DNA of 61,882 nucleotides, filler included, from Collodictyon triciliatum (lineage: Eukaryota): NCBI GenBank assembly GCA_043381765.1. It is 24 parts of 24 records of this genome, joined end to end, with 100 filler letters (N's around TTAATTAATTAA, not from the genome) between each part and the next. Parts side by side here need not be neighbours in the genome. Positions count along the whole stretch, not along the records: positions 18,072 to 20,552 come from JBHJMP010008804.1; 23 more parts are not named here. One strand, given 5' to 3'. Each line of letters begins with the position of its first letter. Within the stretch, counting starts at the first letter, position 1. Shown here piece after piece: positions 18,190 through 59,541 of the stretch. The notes below the pieces were generated by a model, which saw only the letters and a list, made by a program, of their open reading frames with translations, made no database searches and was not told the DNA's origin. A program made the translations under genes and the position numbers.

Positions 18190-20415
18190 TAAATAAGTTC
18201 CTCGCGAGATGTAAATTTTGCCTCTAGCAGATTTCTTGCAAACACAGAAGAAAAGTCTTGTAAAATAAATTATCTCAAGAGGAAAAACAGGAGAGAAAAA
18301 CCTCTCTTGGTCGTGAATAAACTGGATTTGAATCCCCCCGCATGAAGCTCTCATAGTGCTTACCTATTAATTGAATAAAAGAACTTAATATGACCACCAC
18401 AGACATATATGCTGATGTTAGCTGAATATATTTGAACATAATGAAAATGAAAACGAAAATACTATTTCGTTCAACTTTTCCTCCAAAGGCGTGCCATTTA
18501 ATTTATCAAGACATATAATGGTGTCATTTTCTAGATTTGCAATTAAACAGAAGGTTGTTTCGGATTCAAAATTTTCAGAATATGGGATAAACATAACGAC
18601 GAATAGTTCACTTTTTTTCAAGCAAATGATAAGAATTTACCCTCATTAACCGGCTTGTAGTATTCCTGTCCCCAAGATGCTTTTAACGATTTCCCCGAAA
18701 TTTGCAAGAGGTTTAGGCTATGTAAGTGTGATGGTGATGATTGGTCGGGTGAATGGAATTTATAATATATGAAACATATATCATCCTTTATTTGATTCAA
18801 AGTAACCTAGATGAATTATCAAAAATACCATAGAATAGCGTTTTTTGCACAGATGTGGTGTTCAAATATTACAAATCCGAATCCACGACATTTTTTCGAG
18901 ATTGGATCAATCATTGCATTAATCTAAGTTTTTGTAAACAATAAAAATAGAAATGGAAAAATGAAGGGAATAGGGGAGGGAAAATGTGGACCCGAAGTTC
19001 ATTTCAGTGTCATTTAACCTCTTGGTACATTTCTTTGAATCGAATAAAGGGGGAAAAAACCTCTTGGTACATTTATCTAATAACTTGTATCAAAACTTTC
19101 ATTCTATAAGACGGACAATTTTTCATGGTTCATAACTTGCGATTAAGAAGTAAATATTGGATTAAAAATCAGACTGGTACATATTGTCACCTTCACAATA
19201 TCTCCAAAAGGTTTTGCTATCAACTCCAAAATATCTTGGCTCATTTTGGTTGGGAGATTTCTTAAAAATACGTTGCAGTTTCCTGGTGATTGATTCGCTG
19301 TATCCAGTTCTTCCCTACTAACTAAAGGGAGCCAATACAGATATGGGATTTGTTATAATGGTGCATTTATTCAGAGGATAATTTAGTAATAAAGCCATTT
19401 ACTAACATTTAATCTGGTTCCATCTTCCGATTAATTTATTGCTAGTTTGATTATTTGCATTTGATTCGCTCAAGGAAGGAAATGGTGGAGGGGGTATGGT
19501 ATTCTCCTTCGGGTATTTCTGATATATCTCGATCATTTTATCTAACTGTCATATTAATTTTAAATTTGAAGCAAAAGATTGAAGGGAAAAAGGCTTTATG
19601 GAAATTGATTTTAAATTAAACTTGATCATGAAAGAAAAAATATATACTTGGTTTTGTTGCTCCTCCTCTGTCATTAACTGCGCCGATACCCTGGGTATCA
19701 TCATAATGGAAAGCGGACTCATTATAGAATCATCTATTAAAAAAAAAAAACAGTGGTATATTGGAGAGAATTATGCTTAACAAACAACCTCGCATATAAT
19801 TCGGTATAATTCTTTGTAGCAATTAATAGGAAGCGCTGTGTGAATAATCATCATGTACTGGAAGGGGGAAACGACACAGAGCAAATGTAATGGTAAGTAT
19901 ATAACACTATATATTGCAGTATAGATACAAGAAAATCGAAGCATTGAGTAGGATTCGTTTGTAGAAAAGCAATCTCATGAGAATACCTAGATGACTTTGG
20001 TCCCGACTCATGCTGTCGTCATCTTTCATATCGGCTGCCTCTGTATAACTTGAAATTGGTCGTATCACGAGCTTAGGGATGTTTGATACCTCTGTAGATA
20101 AGATTTTAGGGGGAATAACAAAAAAAAAAAAAATTAATGTACGTAACCACACAGATATGGCTGATTGCGATAATATCATATTGTGTAAATGTAAATATAT
20201 ACGTTTATTGAAGAGGAAAAATATGTAGAGAATTGGGTAATAAATGTGGTTACTGGAATGAACTTGCTTTTGTATTGGTTTGTTTTTGTTAGGGCGGCAA
20301 CTGAAGTCTTTTTTGTGTTTGCTTGATGGTGCTGGCCATGCAGGCTCTTAGTGGGGAATAAGTCGAGGAACTGTACGGCTTTGTAGAAAATGTCACGAGC
20401 TTTCTCTGGGTTCAT
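18190..20415 (-). CDS. RRM-containing RNA-binding protein; spliced
   Basis: ATG at 20415. Exon NCNVFLRNLPTKMSQDILELIAKPFGDIVKVTI gives RNP2 and helix 1; the next exon has ICFIYYKF...LNLLQISGKSLKASWG, an RRM C-terminal half. The 3' boundary is approximate. Confidence 0.6.
19016..19074 (+). mobile_element. Ultra-short retroposed insertion (family 1) in an RRM-gene intron
   Basis: Insert 19033-19057, CTTTGAATCGAATAAAGGGGGAAAA, is flanked by the perfect 17-bp direct repeat AACCTCTTGGTACATTT (19016-19032 and 19058-19074). Confidence 0.9.
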
Positions 20416-20490
20416 CGGTTTGGAGCCTATTTGTCATTATTGTTTCGTTTTCATTTTTTGTTTTTTGTTTTTTTTTGTTTTTTGTTTTTT

Positions 20491-20552
<62 letters not shown>

Positions 20553-22225: not shown

Positions 22226-22315
22226 AAAAACATGCTGTTAAGCCAACATCTTCACCATCCTGCACAAAATTGAAAGGAAGAATAATATAAATAATAATAA
22301 TAAAAACATGCTGTT
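22226..22315 (+). mobile_element. Short retroposed insertion (family 2)
   Basis: Insert 22240-22301 with a TAA-rich tail lies between 14-bp direct repeats AAAAACATGCTGTT. The 35-bp core at 22251-22285 is identical to 25305-25339 on another contig. Confidence 0.8.
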
Positions 22316-23250
22316 GGATGAAGAATATTTATTTTTATGCTGATGTTAAAATATATCATCACAAAAAAAGGAAGAAAAAGGGACATATATAGATATATGC
22401 CACGGAATTGTGATGCAGACTATAGTGCAATTGTTTTTATTGCCCATCTCCTATCTGCCCAGTATAAATTTCAATTTCCATACTATCAATTATTATTAAA
22501 CTATTCAAATGTAATCCCTTTTTGTCTTGTTCTTTTGTCCATGTCTTTAGCTCTAGGGTACGTGGCACAGAATGTTGATATTACTTACCCATGAAAATTG
22601 CATTCAAAAAAAGTTATTTAACCAAATACATGAGGTTGGCAAATAGAAGTGTATTAGGCGCCACACCTTCGCGGTCTTCATTGTGGTATCTGAAGACAAC
22701 ATTTTATAACCGTCTCTTGGGCTTCAGAATACGCCTACTTACAGTTTGTACGATTTCGTAGCATCGCTCTTTTACAGTGCAAATACCTGACCCTAGATGG
22801 AGGGAGCAGTGGTTGGAAAACCAAGGCCATCAGATAAAGATAGGGTATGTGAGGAAATAGGAAAACAATAGTCAAATATGCGCTATCTTTTGACGGTGTT
22901 ACTGAAAACTTTGCATTTAAAATGACTATGCGTTCTTATTCTGCACCAAACATATGGTTCTGCTTCGCATGGCATTTTTTTTAAGGACGTTTGCTCATGA
23001 AAAAGTGAAAGCAAGACTTTTTTTTTAATAAATAAGAGAAAGAGAAAGAGAAAGAGAAAGAGAAAGAGAAAGAGAAAGAGAAAGAGAAAGAGAAAGAGAA
23101 AGAGAAAGAGAAAGAGAAAGAGAAAGAGAAANNNNNNNNNNNNNNNNNNNNNNNNNNNNNNNNNNNNNNNNNNNNTTAATTAATTAANNNNNNNNNNNNN
23201 NNNNNNNNNNNNNNNNNNNNNNNNNNNNNNNATACAATAATATAAGATAC

Positions 23251-25710
23251 TTTTCAAGGTCATCGTAAACGGCTCCAATATTTCCATATGAAGTGGCAAC
23301 ATCAGGGTGGACTTCTCCAAACACTTTCAGTGTAATATCAAGGTCTTTTTGGTAGTAATCCAGAGCTTTGTCATATCTATTCAATAATAAGTTAATGAAA
23401 TGATAAACATAAATATACAATAATATAAGATACTTTTCAAGGTCATCGTAAACGGCTCCAATATTTCCATATGAAGTGGCAACATCAGGGTGGACTTCTC
23501 CAAACACTTTCAGCTTAATTTCCAGTGATTTATGATAGTACTCGAGTGCTTTATGATGTCTATTAAGTAATAAGCCAATTAAATGATAAACATAAAAAAT
23601 ATGTAATTAAATGGAACATACTTTCCGAGGTTATTGTAAACCAGCCCAATATTATTATATGACCCAGCAATATCAGGGTGGACTTCTCCAAACACTTTCA
23701 GTCGGATTTCCAATGATTTGTGGTGGTAATCCAGTGCTTTGTCATGTCTATTAAATAATAAGTTAACGAGAGGATAAACATAAATATACAATAATAAAAA
23801 AAAATACTTTCCGAGGCTATTGTAAACGGCTCCAATATTATTATATGAAGTGGCAACATCAGGGTGGACTTCTCCAAACACTTTCAGTCGGATTTCCAAT
23901 GATTTGTGGTAGTATTCCAGAGCTTTGTCATATCTATTAAATAATAAGTTAATGAAAAGATAAACATAAATATACAATAATAAAAGATACTTTCCAATTT
24001 TCTTGTATACGGCTCCGATGTTATTATATGAAGCGGCAACATCAGGGTGGACTTCTCCAAACACTTTCAGTCGGATTTCCAATGATTTGTGGTAGTAATC
24101 CAGTGCTTTGTCATATCTATTAAATAATAAGTTAACGAGAGGATAAACATAAATATACAATAGTAAAAAAAAATACTTTCCGAGGTTATTGTAAACCAGC
24201 CCAATATTATTATATGAAGTGGCAACATCAGTGTGCACTTCTCCAAACACTTTCAGTCGGATTTCCAATGACTTGTGAAAGTATTCCAGAGCTTCGTCAT
24301 GTCTATTAAATGATAAGTTAATGAAATGATAAACATAAATATACAATAATAAAAGATACTTTCCAAGGTCTTCGTAAACGGCTCCAATATTATTATATAA
24401 AGCGGCAACATCAGTGTGCACTTCTCCAAACACCTTCAGTTGAATTTCCAATGATTTGTGGTAGTATTCCAGGGCTTCGTCATGTCTATTAAATAATAAG
24501 TTAATGAAAGAATAAACATTAAAAAGACGTAATTAATAGAATATACTTTCCGAGGTTATTGTAAACCAGCCCAATATTATTATATGAAGCGGCAACATAA
24601 GTATGCACTTCTCCAAACACTTTCAGTCGGATTTCCAATGATTTGTGGTGGTAATCCAGTGCTTTATCATGTCTATTAAATAATAAGTTAATGAAAGAAT
24701 AAACATTAAAAACACGTAATTAATAGAATATACTTTCCGAGGTTATTGTAAACCATCCCAATATTATTATATGAAGTGGCAACATCAGGGTGGACTTCTC
24801 CAAACACCTTCAGTTGAATTTCCAATGATTTGTGGTAGTACTCCAGTGCTTCGTCATGTCTATTAAATAATAAGTTAATGAAAGAATAAACATTAAAAAC
24901 ACGTAATTAATAGAATATACTTTCCGAGGTTATTGTAAACCAGCCCAATATTATTATATGAAGTGGCTACATCAGTGTGCACTTCTCCAAACACTTTCAG
25001 TTGAATTTCCAATGATTTGTGATAGTACTCCAGTGCTTTGTCATGTCTATTAAATGATAAGTTAATGAAAGAATAAACATTAAAAACACGTAATTAATAA
25101 AATATACTTTCCGAGGTTATTGTAAACCAGCCCAATATTATTATATGAAGCGGCAACATCAGTGTGCACTTCTCCAAACACTTTCAGTCGAATATCCAAT
25201 GATTTGTGGTAGTATTCCAGGGCTTCGTCATTTCTATTAAACGATAAGTCAAATAAATGATAAATAAACATGTATATAATCAAATAAAACAAGTTCGTGT
25301 TCTTTTCACCATCCTGCACAAAATTGAAAGGAAGAATAAAAAAAAAATAATCAAATAAAACATACTTTCCAAGGTCACTGTAAACCAACCCTAGAAAATT
25401 CAGATTTCTACCATCCAAACCTAATAAAAATGAACAAAGTCAGCAACACTCACAACAATCAAAAACAAACTGGCCATACTCTCATCCGTCTCAACAGAAA
25501 TGCGGTGCTCAAGAATCGGAATCAAAAAGGCATTCTCTTGAATTTGCTGAAAATATTCAACCAACGCAGAGCCAGCAGAATTCAGTTGCTGTTGTACATA
25601 CCATTAAAATAAATTCAATATTGACACATGTAATTGAGTTTTATCACCTTGGCCAACTCACCATAGACAACTTTGTGGTCATAACCGTTCTTATTCAGCG
25701 CTCTCCAGCA
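23251..25710 (-). CDS. 42-aa TPR-repeat protein (TPR_12, nephrocystin-3/kinesin-light-chain-like repeats); partial at both ends
   Basis: Eleven near-identical 126-nt exons (KHDEALEYYHKSLEIRLKVFGEVHPDVATSYNNIGLVYNNLG) separated by homologous GT-AG introns of about 56-62 nt. Non-repeat exons lie upstream. Confidence 0.93.
25276..25362 (+). mobile_element. Short retroposed insertion (family 2) in a TPR-gene intron
   Basis: Insert 25292-25346 ends in an A tail and is flanked by the perfect 16-bp repeat ATAATCAAATAAAACA (25276-25291 and 25347-25362). Confidence 0.85.
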
Positions 25711-45570: not shown

Positions 45571-46691
45571 AATATCAACGGACACTTCCTATTATTCAAT
45601 ATCAAGCAAATGAGATATCAGCTAATCGATAAAGCTTCGTTAGAGCTATATTTTCATATTGCCAAGCTCAGGGTTTCAGTAGTAGATAGTTCCAGTGTAT
45701 CTAATTGCTGATTTGGTGGTGTCTTGTTGATTACCTTCTTGTCGATAATATCTCATGTATTTATTAAAAATGAATATTTTCTGGCCAGCGGTTGTATTTC
45801 TCTTCCATTATTCATATCAGATCTAGTTGTGTTGCTGTTCTATTTCACTTTTTGTGGCGACGTTTTTTTTTCTTTTAAGAAAATAGTAAAAGAAATTGTC
45901 GTTTATTCCATCACATATATACTATCCTTTGACGGTGAATACTCTTGATTTTTCATAGTCATATTTTATCTATTTTTTTCATTCGAATTAAAGCTTTTTT
46001 TTTTTTTTTGCTATGTGCGGACAGACGTGCCCGATGAGTTTATCATAATGTGTTTTCTTTTTGTTGAAGGCGGGCAGTCTGTATTAGCTATACATCGCGC
46101 AGCACCTAGTCACGAAGTCTTTTTTTTTTTTTTTTCAAGACTACGAGCATAATCATGGCTTTATCAGCTTGAGTTCATCACAGCGACCCTTTTAGAAGGT
46201 TTGAAGAGTATTGTTCGGTTTGAACTATTGAATCCAATCAATTTATATGGTTCTTGTCTTCCTTTATTCAATTATATAACGCGAGGGGTACATTGACGGT
46301 TACTTCACCAAGATATCTCATGACCACGCGTTTGCATGTTAAGCGGTAATCGCCTCTACTTCCATTTAATTGTTAAATCCAGAGTATGTTGATAAAATAC
46401 CATTGTTTTTTCATGCCACCCGCCATTATTCAAANNNNNNNNNNNNNNNNNNNNNNNNNNNNNNNNNNNNNNNNNNNNTTAATTAATTAANNNNNNNNNN
46501 NNNNNNNNNNNNNNNNNNNNNNNNNNNNNNNNNNCTTTTCTTTCTCTTTTCTTTCTCTTTTCTTTCTCTTTTCTTTCTCTTTTCTTTCTCTTTTCTTTCT
46601 CTTTTCTTTCTCTTTTCTTTCTCTTTTCTTTTTATTTCTTTCTCTTTCTTGGTCTCTTGATGTCCTAATGTAGGGATATATTTGATGTAGG

Positions 46692-49009: not shown

Positions 49010-49320
49010 NNNNNNNNNNNNNNNNNNNNNNNNNNNNNNNNNNNNNNNNNNNNTTAATTAATTAANNNNNNNNNNNNNNNNNNNNNNNNNNNNNNNNNNN
49101 NNNNNNNNNACATACATACATACATACATACATACATACATACATACATACATACATACATACATACATACATACATACATACATACATACATACATACA
49201 TTCATACATACCAAGAGAAAAGAAGGCATGTTATATGAACAAGCGAACCGTCTCAAGTATAAAGACAATCATCATGGATTATCGGCTGTAAGTAAACTCC
49301 ATTTATTGTTTTAGGCACGA

Positions 49321-51437
49321 CTAGTCGCTTTCGCTGAACTCACAATTCTTGTATTTCAGCCAGCAGGCCTCTCCATTTTGAAGCATTCTATACTCAGTTA
49401 GAAGTGCATCGTTAAAACTAGTCTGACAGGTATAGGGCCAACATATAACGTGATGTTCCACAAGACCATTCAAAGAGTTATCTACTTCATATGTCAACAT
49501 CGAATAAAATTATTACAAACCACTGAGTGATATTTTCCGTACTCCGAGGAAACTTGGTGGGCACAGGCTATCAAGTCACGCTCTTTTTGCACGTAGAATA
49601 GCTCTAAGTCAGCTTCGAGAGAATTCTGGGCTTGGGTAAATACCTCATAACTGGAATTCCTTTGCTTAGTGATCTGCATTTTTGGAAGAGTAAGAGTTAT
49701 TTTATGCACATAGAACATTAGCAGATATGATAACAAAGACTGTAAATGCAGATATAGATATATAGATAGGCAGGTTGGTAGGTTGGTAGGTAGGTAGGTA
49801 GGTAGGTAGGTAGGTAGGTAGGTAGGTAGGTAGGTAGGTAGGTAGGTAGGTAGGTAGGTAGGCAGAGTAAAAAGGACATATACATATTATAAATGTGAAT
49901 GAGATAATATGAAGGAAAATGAAAAAAAAATGCTACGTCATCAACTTCCTGAGTCAATTTATGAATCAATTGAGTCTTTCCCTCTGCTTTAGCCTGTATG
50001 TGCCGGTTCGATGAAATGTATATATATTCATATAATTAAAAAAATTATCCTTCAATGCATTATTTTCTTTCCTTTATTCGATTCAAAGATCCTTCAATGC
50101 ATTATAATTAAACATATATTTTTAAAAATAAACAGGTTGACCTGCTCCAGTTTTTGATTTTTTTCTTCTAACGATTTTTCCAGGTCATAGAAACGTACGA
50201 GATGAGCAAATCTAGACTTCATCGCTTCCTAAAAAAAACCATATTGGTTGAAAGGAAATTATATGTGTGGATTTATCAGGCAAAAGAAAAAGGGACTTTT
50301 CAACATATTTATTATGGAGAGTTTACCGCGACGGACGCAGCCATTTTTTCATAAAATCCAAAAGGCTGACTACACTTCAACAAGGAGGAAGACTGATTTG
50401 GTGCATAGTTGACAGCAAAATTTTAAGTCATGAAAAAATCAAAAGTATATAGCGAGAAGTAGAAAAGAGAAAACGAGGAAGATCAAAAAAAATGTCAATT
50501 GGAATTAACGGCCAAACAAATAAATCTCTTACAAAGTCTTCAGTCCCGTTCAAAATATCTCTTTGAGCTCGATGAAGTTTCTGATAACTCAGAGAAATCT
50601 CTAGTGATTCCTCTCGATGGTTTTCAATGCTAGAGGTTAATTCAGATGTAGCATTCGAAACTTCACCATGAATCGTTAGAAGTTTTTCAAATGATGAGCG
50701 GATATGCCCAGATGATTGCGATAGAGCTAAAAGATTCCTCTTGAGTTGATCGTATCGTTCGTTCGTCTCTTCGAAGTTATCCAGAAGCGTGTCTTGAATA
50801 GCATCCTCTATGTTCTTTGAAATATCTTCGAGAGTAGATCTCTTGTTCGAAGATAGAAACGAAACGAAATTCTATGTGACAAAAAAAATTCAAGTTAAAG
50901 ACAAAGAGGTACTAGGATGGACAGTCATGCTGTGATGAAAAGCTTCTAAATAGGCAAATATATTATTATGAGATATGACGAATACATACAATTCTATTTA
51001 GCTTGATGAACTTCTGAAAATTCAAATTTTCTGCAAGTATTTGATTCTTTGAGACCGAATCCATAAATTTCTTCAGTCCAATCATGCGCTCATCAATGAC
51101 TTTCTTTCCAATACGCTGAAACACGGTTTTTTCAGGGAGCGGAGGGACAATGCATCCAGGATGGTCAGCGGTTAGCCGATCTCGAATCCAATCAAATTCA
51201 CTGTATCTTCGTTGGACGTTGTACAACTCAATTTTCCCTGATGCATTGGTAACCTGCAACCATAAGAGAAAGTATAGATTTCTCACTAAGGAAATGATAA
51301 GAATCGTGTTGATAAATTTTTCTGAGGAAGTTTATCAAATATGAAGATACTTTCACGAAGATGGTGTATATAATATATGGCGATCTTTTCTCCATTAAGA
51401 CTTCGGGATTAGCAACATCAAAATCATAAGAGCATCC
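49321..51437 (-). CDS. Sorting nexin (PX-BAR); 5' partial
   Basis: PX motifs VANPE...YIIYTI, VQRRYSEFDWIR, HPGCIVPPLPEK and IDERMIGLKKFM, followed by helical BAR-like exons and TAG at 49321. Confidence 0.9.
50047..50105 (-). mobile_element. Ultra-short retroposed insertion (family 1) in a sorting-nexin intron
   Basis: Insert 50064-50088 (reverse complement CTTTGAATCGAATAAAGGAAAGAAA) is flanked by the perfect 17-bp repeat ATCCTTCAATGCATTAT (50047-50063 and 50089-50105). Confidence 0.9.
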
Positions 51438-52955: not shown

Positions 52956-54260
52956 NNNNNNNNNNNNNNNNNNNNNNNNNNNNNNNNNNNNNNNNNNNNN
53001 NNNNNNNNNNNNNNNNNNNNNNNNNNNNNNNNNNNNNNNNNNNNNNNNNNNNNNNNNNNNNNNNNNNNNNNNNNNNNNNNNNNNNNNNNNNNNNNNNNNN
53101 NNNNNNNNNNNNNNNNNNNNNNNNNNNNNNNNNNNNNNNNNNNNNNNNNNNNTGTTTGTTTGTTTGTTTGTTTGTTTGTTTGTTTGTCTGTTCTGTGACT
53201 GCACTTGACAAATAGCATAGGATAAGCGTTGTTCGAGCGAGAGATGCAGTCGTGAACACAAAGAATAGAACGCGCATTTTGAATGAATGGCATGATAAGG
53301 TAGCAAGAGGGAGAGAGAGCTAGACAGCAGGATTTCGACGGGGTGTAGCCTTATAATCCCGCAAAACCATTGAATTATCCAAGAAAAACGATATGGCCTC
53401 TCAACATATAGATAGACAGATTGGGTTGTGTGTCACTCGTGTGGGTTGTGTGGTTCGTGTGGTGGTTGGGAGCAGAACATTTTCGAAGGCCACAGGTGCA
53501 GTATCTTACCGTGACGCTCGATCTGTATTCCTGCTGCAAATATGCGGTATATGTCCGGCATAGTATCGGACATGCACCATAATTTAGTAAATGCTTTAAA
53601 TTCCAGATTAAAAAATTTGATGACAATGGTACGGAATTAATGTCAACTCTTTTCCTTTTGTTGTTAGTTTTGCTTCTTCATGCTATTAATGTCCATGTCC
53701 ATTCCTGGCTTTTTTTTCTTTGCTGTGAGGGTGTTACCCTTCTGTGCGAGTGAGTGAACCTTTCATAGTTGCCGCAGTGAGTTTGTAATCTTCCGTGTGC
53801 TCGCGTGTGTGAAGCAGACTTCGGCTTTTTCCGGCATAATGGAGAGCCTTTGAGATATTCGAGTTCTGTGGGCGCGGGTGCGCTCGTGAGTCCACGTTGC
53901 ATTGCATTACTTGTGCCAGTGTTTGCGTGTTGCAGACGGCATTTGTTGGTCGACTCGACTCGACTCGACTCGACTCGACTCGACTAGTTGGTGACCGACC
54001 GGCTGCTGTAAAAAAAGGTATGAAACTCTAAACGGATAACCCTGAGCGCACAGGCTTCGCGTTACCGAGCTTTACATACAGCTCTATCTCGACTCTTTAT
54101 GTACAAAGGCGTTGCCTGAATGGGGAGCAGTTTATTTGTGAGTTTATCAATGGTGGCGTNNNNNNNNNNNNNNNNNNNNNNNNNNNNNNNNNNNNNNNNN
54201 NNNTTAATTAATTAANNNNNNNNNNNNNNNNNNNNNNNNNNNNNNNNNNNNNNNNNNNNA

Positions 54261-55890
54261 TCATGCTATGCTTGCTCAGAAGGCACATTCAACTCAAACT
54301 CCGGCTCATATGGCAATAAATCATGTATTGAATGTCCACAAGGCACTTGGAATGATAGAGAGGGTCAAGCATCATGCACATCATGTCCAGCTGGTACATT
54401 CAACTATAAAACTGGCACATTTAATCAATCATCATGTATTTCATGTCCAAATGGAAGCTACAGCTCAGAGAGAAGCGCATCATGCAGTTTATGCTCATCA
54501 GGACTCTATCAAAAAGAGCATATCATAAAAGACTCGCAATCATGCTATGCTTGCTCAGAAGGCACATTCAACTCAAACTCCGGCTCATATGGCAATAAAT
54601 CATGTATTGAATGTCCACAAGGTACTTGGAACGATAAAAACGGCCAAGCATCATGCACATCGTGTCCATCTGGTACATTCAATAACAAAACTGGCACATC
54701 ATATCAATCATCATGTATTTCATGTCCAAATGGAAGCTACAGCTCAGAAAGAAGCGCATCATGCAGTTTATGCTCATCAGGATTCTATCAAAAAGAGCAT
54801 ATCATAAAAGACTCGCAATCATGCTATGCTTGCTCAAAAGGCACATTCAACTCAAACTCCGGCTCATATGGCAATAAATCATGTATTGAATGTCCACAAG
54901 GTACTTGGAACGATAAAGACGGTCAAGCATCATGTACATCGTGTCCAGCCGGTACTTTCAACAATCAAACTGGCACATTTGATGAATCATCATGTGATTT
55001 ATGTCCAAATGGAACCTACAGCTCAGAAAGAAGTTCATCATGCAGTCCTTGTTTATCAGGATTCTATCAAAAAGAAGACATTATAAAAGACTCAAGCTCA
55101 TGCTATGCTTGTCCAAAAGGCACATTCAACTCAAACTCCGGCTCTCATGGATACATATCATGTACTGAATGTCCACAAGGTACTTGGAATGACAAGGATG
55201 GCCAAGCATCATGTATAGCATGTTCAGCTGGTACATTTAACAATCAAACTGGCACATTTAATCGATCATCATGCATTTCATGTCCAAACGGAAGTTACAG
55301 CTCAGAAAGAAGCGCATCGTGTATCTCATGCTCATCAGGATTCTATCAAAAAGGGGACATCACAAAAGACTCTAAATCATGCTTTGCTTGTCCAAAAGGC
55401 ACATTTAACTCAAACTCCGGCTCTCATGGATACATATCATGTACTGAATGTCCACAAGGTACTTGGAATGATAGAGATGGTCAAGCATCATGCACATCGT
55501 GTCCAACCGGTACTTTCAACAATAAGGCTGGGTCATTCAACCAATCATCATGCATTTCATGTCCAAATGGAAGCTACAGCTCAGAGAGAAGCGCATCATG
55601 CAGTTTATGCTCATCAGGATTCTATCAAAAAGAAGGAATAACAAAAGACTCACAATCCTGCTATGCTTGTCCAAAAGGCTCATTCAACTCAAACTTCGGT
55701 TCGTATACAAACACATCATGTATTGAATGTCCACAAGGTACTTGGAGTGATAGAGATGGTCAAGCATCATGCACATCGTGTCCATCTGGTACATTCAATA
55801 ACAAAACTGGCACATCATATCAATCATCATGTATTTCATGTCCAAATGGAAGCTACAGCTCAGAGAGAAGCACATCATGCAGTTTATGTC
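54261..55890 (+). repeat. 279-bp (93-aa) coding tandem repeat, about 5.8 units
   Basis: Units start at 54261, 54540, 54819, 55098, 55377 and 55656, with high nucleotide similarity. Confidence 0.93.
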
Positions 55891-56734
55891 CCACACGCTC
55901 AACTACAACATCAAAAGGTTCTAAATCAATCGATGATTGCAAATGCATATATTCTTATGTATCATTCAATGGTGCTTGCACATGTCCTCCGGGACAGTTT
56001 GAGGACGAAAATAAATGTGTTCCATGCAGAATAGGTTCATACAAATCAACAAACGGCACGAATTTCTGCCTTTCATGTGGTGATAAGTTTACGACAATAA
56101 ATAATGGCTCGATGAACTCGACGGATTGTATTTGTAGTACAGGATTTGAACTCAGAAATTCTACTTGCGAATGCAAACCTGGATGGTATGAAAAGCAAAA
56201 GAACTGCTATGAATGCCCACCAAGCACATACAGTGAATATTTTGGGCAAACCTTTTGCGAAAAATGCCCAATAAATTCATTTACAAATATGACTGCATCA
56301 ATATCAATTGTAGAGTGTAAATGCCTTCCATCTACATATATTGATTCAAAGACCAAGCAATGCAAAGATTGTCCAACAGGATTTGTCTGCGACGGTAGTA
56401 GTAAGCTCGACGTTGCACCTGGATATTGGCAAGCACCGACATCAAACGGGGAATACATAGCTTATAAATGTCTGAATGAAGATGCTTGCAATGGAGGGAA
56501 TAATACATGTGCTGAAGGGTATACAGGAGCTTTATGCAGTGTTTGTGATGAAGGTTATGGAAGAGCGGGTTCTTTTTGCATTAAATGCTCGTCCCAAGGA
56601 ACAAATGGATTTTTAATTTTTCTCAGTATCGCTATCCCGCTGGCGTTTGTTTTCTTTATGATTGAACAATCAAGAGAGCCACAAACAGATGATATCTTAA
56701 TACTGAAAAATCTGTCCACACATTTTCAGATTTT
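54261..56734 (+). CDS. Cys-rich (GCC2_GCC3/ephrin-receptor-like repeat) membrane protein; partial at both ends
   Basis: The frame starting at 54261 encodes C..CP.GT.N repeats and continues into the 56112 ORF (CAEGYTGALCSVCDEGY...CIKC and a transmembrane segment). The His-rich ORFs in the track are off-frame shadows. Confidence 0.9.

Positions 56735-59408: not shown

Positions 59409-59541
<133 letters not shown>

Follow-up and report, generated by a model that had tools for sequence, protein, structure and literature searches.

The stretch analysed here, from assembly GCA_043381765.1 of Collodictyon triciliatum, is a window of 61,882 bases in which 24 contigs of ~2.48 kb each are joined by N44-TTAATTAATTAA-N44 spacers, so that 59,385 bases are real. 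Its sequence is that of an AT-rich, gene-dense eukaryote with recognisable exons, including those of Raptor_N, PX, RRM, and TPR_12. This report concerns very short insertions in the window, in which the last 18 nucleotides (nt) of a long interspersed element (LINE) on contig 13 stand without the rest of that element.

The 18-mer CTTTGAATCGAATAAAGG has five matches in the window at up to three mismatches, while 100 shuffles gave a mean of 0.20 matches and none of them (0/100) reached five. Four sites have no mismatch [8412-8429 (+), 19033-19050 (+), 32591-32608 (+), and 50071-50088 (-)] and the fifth has one [18785-18802 (-)]. These lie on four contigs (4, 8, 13, and 20), of which contig 8 has two. 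The original prediction placed the 18-mer on four contigs and took its occurrence at 32591 for the 3' end of a LINE; both points were borne out, and the search added the copy at 18785-18802. One of the five is therefore the LINE 3' end, and the other four are solo copies (solos 1-4) without a LINE body. The features are as follows:

8395-8411, + strand: upstream target-site duplication (TSD) of solo 1, AAAAATGGAACTGTCCA, with a T run before it; 15/17 identical to 8435-8451
8412-8434, + strand: insert of solo 1, with the 18-mer at 8412-8429 and an A5 tail at 8430-8434, from letter-by-letter reading
8435-8451, + strand: downstream TSD of solo 1, AAAAATGGAAGCGTCCA, from the flank alignment
18785-18802, - strand: solo 4 on contig 8, the 18-mer with one change (G>A at a CpG), no A tail, and the same 5' boundary
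19016-19032, + strand: upstream TSD of solo 2, AACCTCTTGGTACATTT, 17/17 perfect
19033-19057, + strand: insert of solo 2, with the 18-mer at 19033-19050 and the tail GGGAAAA at 19051-19057, from letter-by-letter reading
19058-19074, + strand: downstream TSD of solo 2, 17/17 perfect
31074-31497, - strand: inverted upstream piece of the second open reading frame (ORF2) of the LINE, from the same copy as the next feature, running off contig 13; junction at 31497/31498
31498-32615, + strand: direct 3' segment of the LINE, with the ORF2 C-terminus and its zf-RVT domain to 32321, then the 3' untranslated region (3' UTR), the 18-mer at 32591-32608, and A7 at 32609-32615
50047-50105, - strand: solo 3, with a TSD at 50089-50105, the 18-mer at 50071-50088, the tail AAAGAAA at 50064-50070, and the other TSD at 50047-50063 (ATAATGCATTGAAGGAT); 17/17

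The flank alignments of solos 1, 2, and 3 scored better than 1999, 2000, and 2000 of 2000 shuffles each, respectively, while solo 4 has no significant TSD (572/2000 shuffles equal its flank score). It had been claimed that three copies stand between 17-bp direct repeats. This is exact for those at 19033 and 50071, whereas the repeats around the copy at 8412 agree at 15/17 and are not perfect. The short A/G-rich tails of these three solos (5-7 nt) read as described, that of solo 1 being A5, or up to A10 under a shorter TSD reading, and so do the target junctions, in which a T tract meets an A: TTTT|AAAAA (8412), TTT|AAC (19033), and TT|ATAA (50071). The common start at the same C extends to the added copy as well (4/4 solos), with a 2-nt ambiguity in solo 1, where CA is common to the target and the LINE. 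The junctions of solos 1-3 are uniform: the TSD is constantly 17 bp (3/3), the microhomology is 2, 0, and 0 nt, and there is neither filler nor an extra G. The inserts of the same three solos measure 23-28, 25, and 25 nt. Three of the four solo sequences are identical to the LINE, and the change at the CpG in the remaining one is private to it. Because TSDs, A-rich tails, and T|A targets, the hallmarks of target-primed reverse transcription (TPRT) that had been pointed out for these copies, occur together in 3/4 solos, the conclusion that the solos are TPRT products of the extreme 3' end of the LINE is supported.

The solos are located in non-coding DNA adjoining Raptor_N, RRM, and PX exons. 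Three of them had each been assigned to an intron; the position beside exons holds, and the intron placement itself is just plausible. At least two of the four are in sense orientation to the neighbouring gene, namely those beside the Raptor gene (+) and the PX gene (-). Four solos per 59,385 bases correspond to 67 per Mb (95% confidence interval, 18-172), a density to be read with care, because a fragmented assembly with short contigs does not sample the genome at random.

The C-terminal frame of the LINE matches zf-RVT (PF13966; E 2.3e-07, 31.8 bits against a cut-off of 27.5), and the Atlas neighbours of its protein are zf-RVT clusters. The representative library gave 18 matches to it, of which the three longest (1226-1275 aa) are distant relatives (E 6.6e-07 to 2.2e-04); Exo_endo_phos (APE-type) and RVT_1 are present in 3/3 of these, zf-RVT in 2/3, and RNase H in 0/3. 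The window has the C-terminus alone, and the endonuclease and reverse transcriptase (RT) domains of this LINE, which lie outside the contig, are deduced from these distant relatives only. A-rich 3' tails (A7 and A10 on two LINE ends) and solos with 17-bp TSDs at T|A are further traits of the L1 type. Judging from these features and from the second LINE copy described below, it is reasonable to regard the parent element as an L1/Tx1-like (L1-type) LINE, in agreement with the carrier that had been proposed. The 5' end and the TSD of the window copy itself are off the contig. Its inversion at 31497/31498 has the geometry expected of twin priming, and in 4/4 public runs compared with contig 13 this junction has loose ends on both sides.

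A second LINE copy was found in a JGI metagenome contig (L002), in which the 18-mer and A10 end the element against a different flank. It is 93% identical to the window LINE over ~530 nt, and the last 38 nt are identical. Two independent copies with different flanks thus indicate that the 18-mer is the true LINE end. At least 15 contigs of public runs (5 in run X1, 3 in X3, and 7 in X6) leave the LINE of contig 13 just behind 32615 into diverse flanks, and the LINE is multi-copy in these runs; the A tails in the loose-end consensus sequences are A7-A14. The public runs containing parts of the window are mostly freshwater metagenomes with small shares each, the maximum being 0.18 of the words of contig 8. 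Word-index protein searches gave 0 matches for the LINE ORF, two weak ones for one host ORF, and none for another, so that there are almost no close relatives among the sequences indexed. The summed depth of the LINE 3' region (32236-32650) relative to 31074-32235 was 5.5x in X1 and 6.7x in X6, which are RNA-like, and 1.1x in X2 and 1.25x in X3, which are DNA-labelled metagenomes, depth being a poor measure. The excess in X1 and X6 could be due to 3'-biased LINE RNA fragments or to library bias. X1 and X6 were identified as RNA by spliced introns of 70 and 83 nt in the LINE flank. At 33086-33170 and 33289-33360 their contigs skip 83 and 70 nt, respectively, with + strand ends CT..AC or CC..AC that correspond to minus-strand introns of the GT..AG type. 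Just downstream of the LINE there is thus a spliced gene on the minus strand.

Self-comparison of the 59 kb found no further fragment of the 1.5-kb LINE piece anywhere. The LINE output in the sample consists of one ordinary 3' end, four 18-nt ends, and none of intermediate length, which is not the pattern of scattered truncation. Among the JGI metagenome contigs, the 18-mer followed by RRR occurs at three loci, of which L002 is the only true LINE end; the other two (L001 and L003) are chance matches in bacterial coding sequence. The four 18-mer loci in GTDB genome contigs are likewise all chance matches, in bacterial metagenome-assembled genomes, and viral contigs gave 0 matches both for the 18-mer family and for a second family of micro-insertions, family B (see below). 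Within the window, one candidate was rejected: at 46261-46272 (-), TTGAATAAAGG and the A/G-rich stretch that follows resemble the last 11 nt of the LINE with a tail, and this 12-mer with one mismatch and no TSD is within chance expectation. In the placement of the public runs on contig 13, 25-nt matches are too short to be placed, and hence these runs yield no solo counts.

A scan of the window for short inserts between exact direct repeats returned the two perfect 18-mer solos and two members of family B:

22226-22315, + strand: B1, with the 14-bp TSD AAAAACATGCTGTT at both ends and a 62-nt insert (22240-22301) that has a TAA-like tail
25276-25362, + strand: B2, with the 16-bp TSD ATAATCAAATAAAACA at both ends and a 55-nt insert (25292-25346) that ends in an A run

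B1 and B2 have a 35-nt core in common at 100% identity and differ in their first 11-13 nt; their non-tail parts measure 46 and 48 nt. No parent element of family B was found within the window, and the core had 0 matches in the genome contigs. The intron that contains B2 belongs to a tandem TPR_12 gene. The tandem TPR_12 units at 23232-25270 are ~186 nt each (an exon and an intron of ~50 nt) and are 84-88% identical to one another. In eight paralogous units the homologous intron end directly meets the exon, with neither an insert nor a duplicated segment; these introns have diverged and are not exact empty sites for B2. No repeats other than the 18-mer family and family B occur on more than one contig of the window, and micro-insertion of retroelement tails seems to take place generally in this genome. 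A TSD scan tolerating mismatches found no additional family; it missed known cases and is hence not exhaustive.

The solos are genuine insertions made by the enzymes of an L1-type LINE, and their sequence shows the course of events. The LINE endonuclease nicks a T|A site, priming takes place on a short A-rich tail, and of the LINE RNA the RT copies the terminal 18 nt only; a cut in the second strand 17 bp away then leaves the 17-bp duplication. The invariant 5' end is what we would expect if the template itself ends at C32591 and the enzyme copies to its very end. Such a template would consist of a discrete 3'-terminal piece of the LINE RNA without a cap, 18 nt followed by ~5-10 A, and would be generated either by a cut at A32590|C32591 or by 5'-to-3' decay that stops there. 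In human L1 assays, as described in the accessible part of the report, full-length copies have consistent TSDs and little microhomology, while truncated copies have variable TSDs and microhomology of at least 2 bp (PMC11702581). By analogy, the constant TSDs and clean junctions of the solos suggest that the template probably ends at C32591. The identity of the last 38 nt between the two LINE copies hints at a recognition element longer than 18 nt. Should 18 nt not suffice for recognition, the solos would not be re-mobilisable, and hence would be dead-on-arrival by-products. Taking these points together, we incline, with confidence balanced at about the midpoint, to regard the solos as "full-length" copies of a discrete LINE RNA mini-fragment, dead on arrival and not a self-propagating lineage. 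The broader claim, that an 18-nt polyadenylated 3' fragment is regularly released from the LINE RNA by slicing, by a nuclease, or as a protected footprint, and is inserted by the RT genome-wide, is made tentatively and is open to considerable doubt.

Several observations weigh against the discrete fragment. The sample consists of only four solos and two LINE ends, and an RNA species of this size is itself a proposal. The junction argument draws on three cases and on the analogy with human L1. No known ribozyme, tRNA-like element, or cleavage motif was found by Rfam or ARAGORN at the 5' junction of the 18-mer; Rfam ribozyme families, with E up to 10, gave no match on contig 13 or L002, and in the window as a whole ARAGORN reported 0 genes and Rfam 0 matches at the gathering score. 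Solo 4 has neither a tail nor a TSD. In the two RNA-like runs, the match to the LINE begins at 32581 in at least five contigs whose upstream sequences differ from one another. These may represent a 28-nt class, or diverged elements that share the last 28 nt only, and the C is perhaps not the sole preferred end. Finally, a ruler model, in which a complementary DNA (cDNA) of ~25 nt is measured from the primer, fits the 18-mer family equally well (23-28, 25, and 25 nt).

The last of these points belongs to a wider comparison, because a short insert with a fixed end can be obtained in other ways. In the ruler model the transition from initiation to elongation fails, and distance from the priming site, not sequence, sets the end. 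The A tails of the LINE, which are short and alike (A7, A10, and A7-A14 in the loose-end consensus sequences), would agree with this as well as the insert lengths do. However, single-base precision would demand that priming always occur at one position, the 5' end is unchanged in the tail-less solo 4, and the two family B inserts differ in total length (62 and 55 nt) more than in their non-tail parts (46 and 48 nt), which points to a sequence-defined end, so that we judge abortive initiation of this type to be improbable. A sequence-specific RT stop on an intact LINE RNA, caused by a protein-bound 3' element, a modified base at A32590, or a weak hairpin, with the 25-nt cDNA then joined upstream, is a minority possibility to which we give somewhat serious attention: the end is base-precise in 4/4 solos, and the two LINE copies do not differ in their final 38 nt, which would be expected of a protein-binding element. 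The hairpin version of such a stop was part of the original prediction, and it did not survive folding. Although the sequence allows a 5-bp helix (CTTTG/TAAAG), which is marginally present in the fold of the 46-nt context, the 18-mer with its tail (25-mer) has a predicted folding free energy of 0 kcal/mol, the 46-mer reaches -2.9 kcal/mol (z 0.08), and the 294-nt 3' UTR folds no better than its shuffles (z -0.13), with no strong structure ending at 32590. The junctions also weigh against a stop. Aborted human L1 cDNAs, in the part of the report cited, are joined with variable TSDs and microhomology (PMC11702581), whereas solos 1-3 have clean joints and TSDs of 17 bp throughout.

The solos could instead be copies of a micro-SINE (short interspersed element), that is, a tiny RNA made from dedicated loci or cotranscribed with introns that carry solos, whose 18-nt tail is recognised by the LINE protein and which amplifies itself. 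Two traits of SINEs are present, namely a discrete 5' end (4/4 solos) and a 3' tail common with a partner LINE, the arrangement known from stringent LINE/SINE pairs. In addition, solos outnumber LINE ends by 4 to 1 in the window, and at least two of the four are in sense orientation (Raptor + and PX -). On the other hand, an RNA polymerase III promoter does not fit into the unit of 18 nt, and searches for a head of tRNA, 7SL, or 5S type found none. A solo within a longer transcript would still need a definition of its 5' end, no substitution is common to the solos yet absent from the LINE (3/4 being identical to it), and the conservation of the LINE spans 38 nt, beyond the solo. A micro-SINE in the strict sense is therefore unlikely. 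Chance similarity or an assembly artefact might be suspected in a fragmented assembly with contigs as short as ~2.5 kb, and we regard this as next to negligible: none of the 100 shuffles reached five matches, the aged TSD (15/17) and the differing tails argue for real, independent events, and an independent metagenome contig has the same LINE end, as do four public runs.

Some other features of the window bear on none of these questions. Microsatellites [(GT)n, (AAG)n-like, poly-T, and (CATA)n-like] are located at many contig ends, among others at 4705-5065, 10150-10228, 20480-20552, 49110-49200, and 59409-59520, and such ends are probably the break points of the short-read assembly. Contig 21 has an internal gap of 197 N (52956-53152). 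An open frame of 856 aa at 54260-56734 encodes Cys-rich repeats (CxxC...GTFN...C) with a unit of ~93 aa and 85-89% DNA identity, as well as a hydrophobic end segment, and looks like a surface protein typical of protists.

If the discrete fragment is real, the inserts read out two things at once: the minimal template for an L1-like RT, and the processing or decay of a LINE RNA at one particular phosphodiester bond. Neither is easy to observe in standard systems, since inserts shorter than ~50 bp are disregarded in repeat annotation. Inserts of 25 bp escape pipelines of the RepeatMasker type, and LINE activity could be badly underestimated in small, gene-dense genomes. Each insert carries AATAAA and an A run, so that sense copies within genes could affect 3'-end formation. 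Should the regular release of the fragment hold as well, the solos would be the smallest known retroposed repeat family (~25 bp), an L1-like enzyme would need no more than 18 nt and a short A run to engage a template, and thousands of AATAAA-bearing mini-inserts would have been seeded in or near genes. Together with family B, micro-retroposition would then be the main LINE output in this lineage, and not full or ordinary truncated insertion. The weight of the claim is limited by its source, four copies in 59 kb of a poorly sampled freshwater eukaryote.

A literature search found the 18-mer in no publication of the library covered and no description of a fixed-start, ~25-bp LINE-tail family, which is no proof of absence. 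The closest counterparts are the 5'-truncated, dead-on-arrival copies of L1, which, as far as the cited portions of these reports describe them, resemble the solos in four respects: the LINE 3' end, the A-rich tail, the T|A target of the endonuclease, and the length of the TSD (PMC2912911; PMC11702581). The inversion in the parent LINE, which resembles twin priming, would likewise be the work of the machinery that makes truncated L1 insertions. The difference lies in the ends: in the L1 copies covered by the same sources the truncation points are scattered, the TSDs are variable, and microhomology is present, while the solos all start at one base, 18 nt before the LINE end, and those with a TSD have it at a constant 17 bp, with clean junctions. 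Unlike ordinary L1 truncations, the solos moreover outnumber every other interspersed repeat in the sample.

SINEs with stringent recognition (e.g., eel UnaL2/UnaSINE1) carry the 3' tail of their partner LINE. They and the solos are alike in being discrete non-coding units that have the tail of a partner LINE and are inserted by the LINE protein. The ~100-bp Platy-1 is called the shortest primate SINE in the part of the report available (PMC4864456), and a body of 18 nt is far below that of any described SINE. Moreover, LINE-tail SINEs measure ~100 bp or more and have a promoter-bearing head, which the solos are without.

The Drosophila "suffix" is a few hundred bases in length. According to the accessible text of two reports, it is a short retroelement whose sequence matches the F element 3' end exactly (PMC1868783; PMC3136478), and to that extent it resembles the solos, both being separate short copies of the 3' end of a non-LTR (long terminal repeat) element. 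In the same sources, the suffix has the coding sequence of the last RT domain and is transcribed, whereas the solos consist of 18 nt of 3' UTR. Compared with these systems, the process in C. triciliatum is ordinary L1-type retroposition, and the product is not ordinary.

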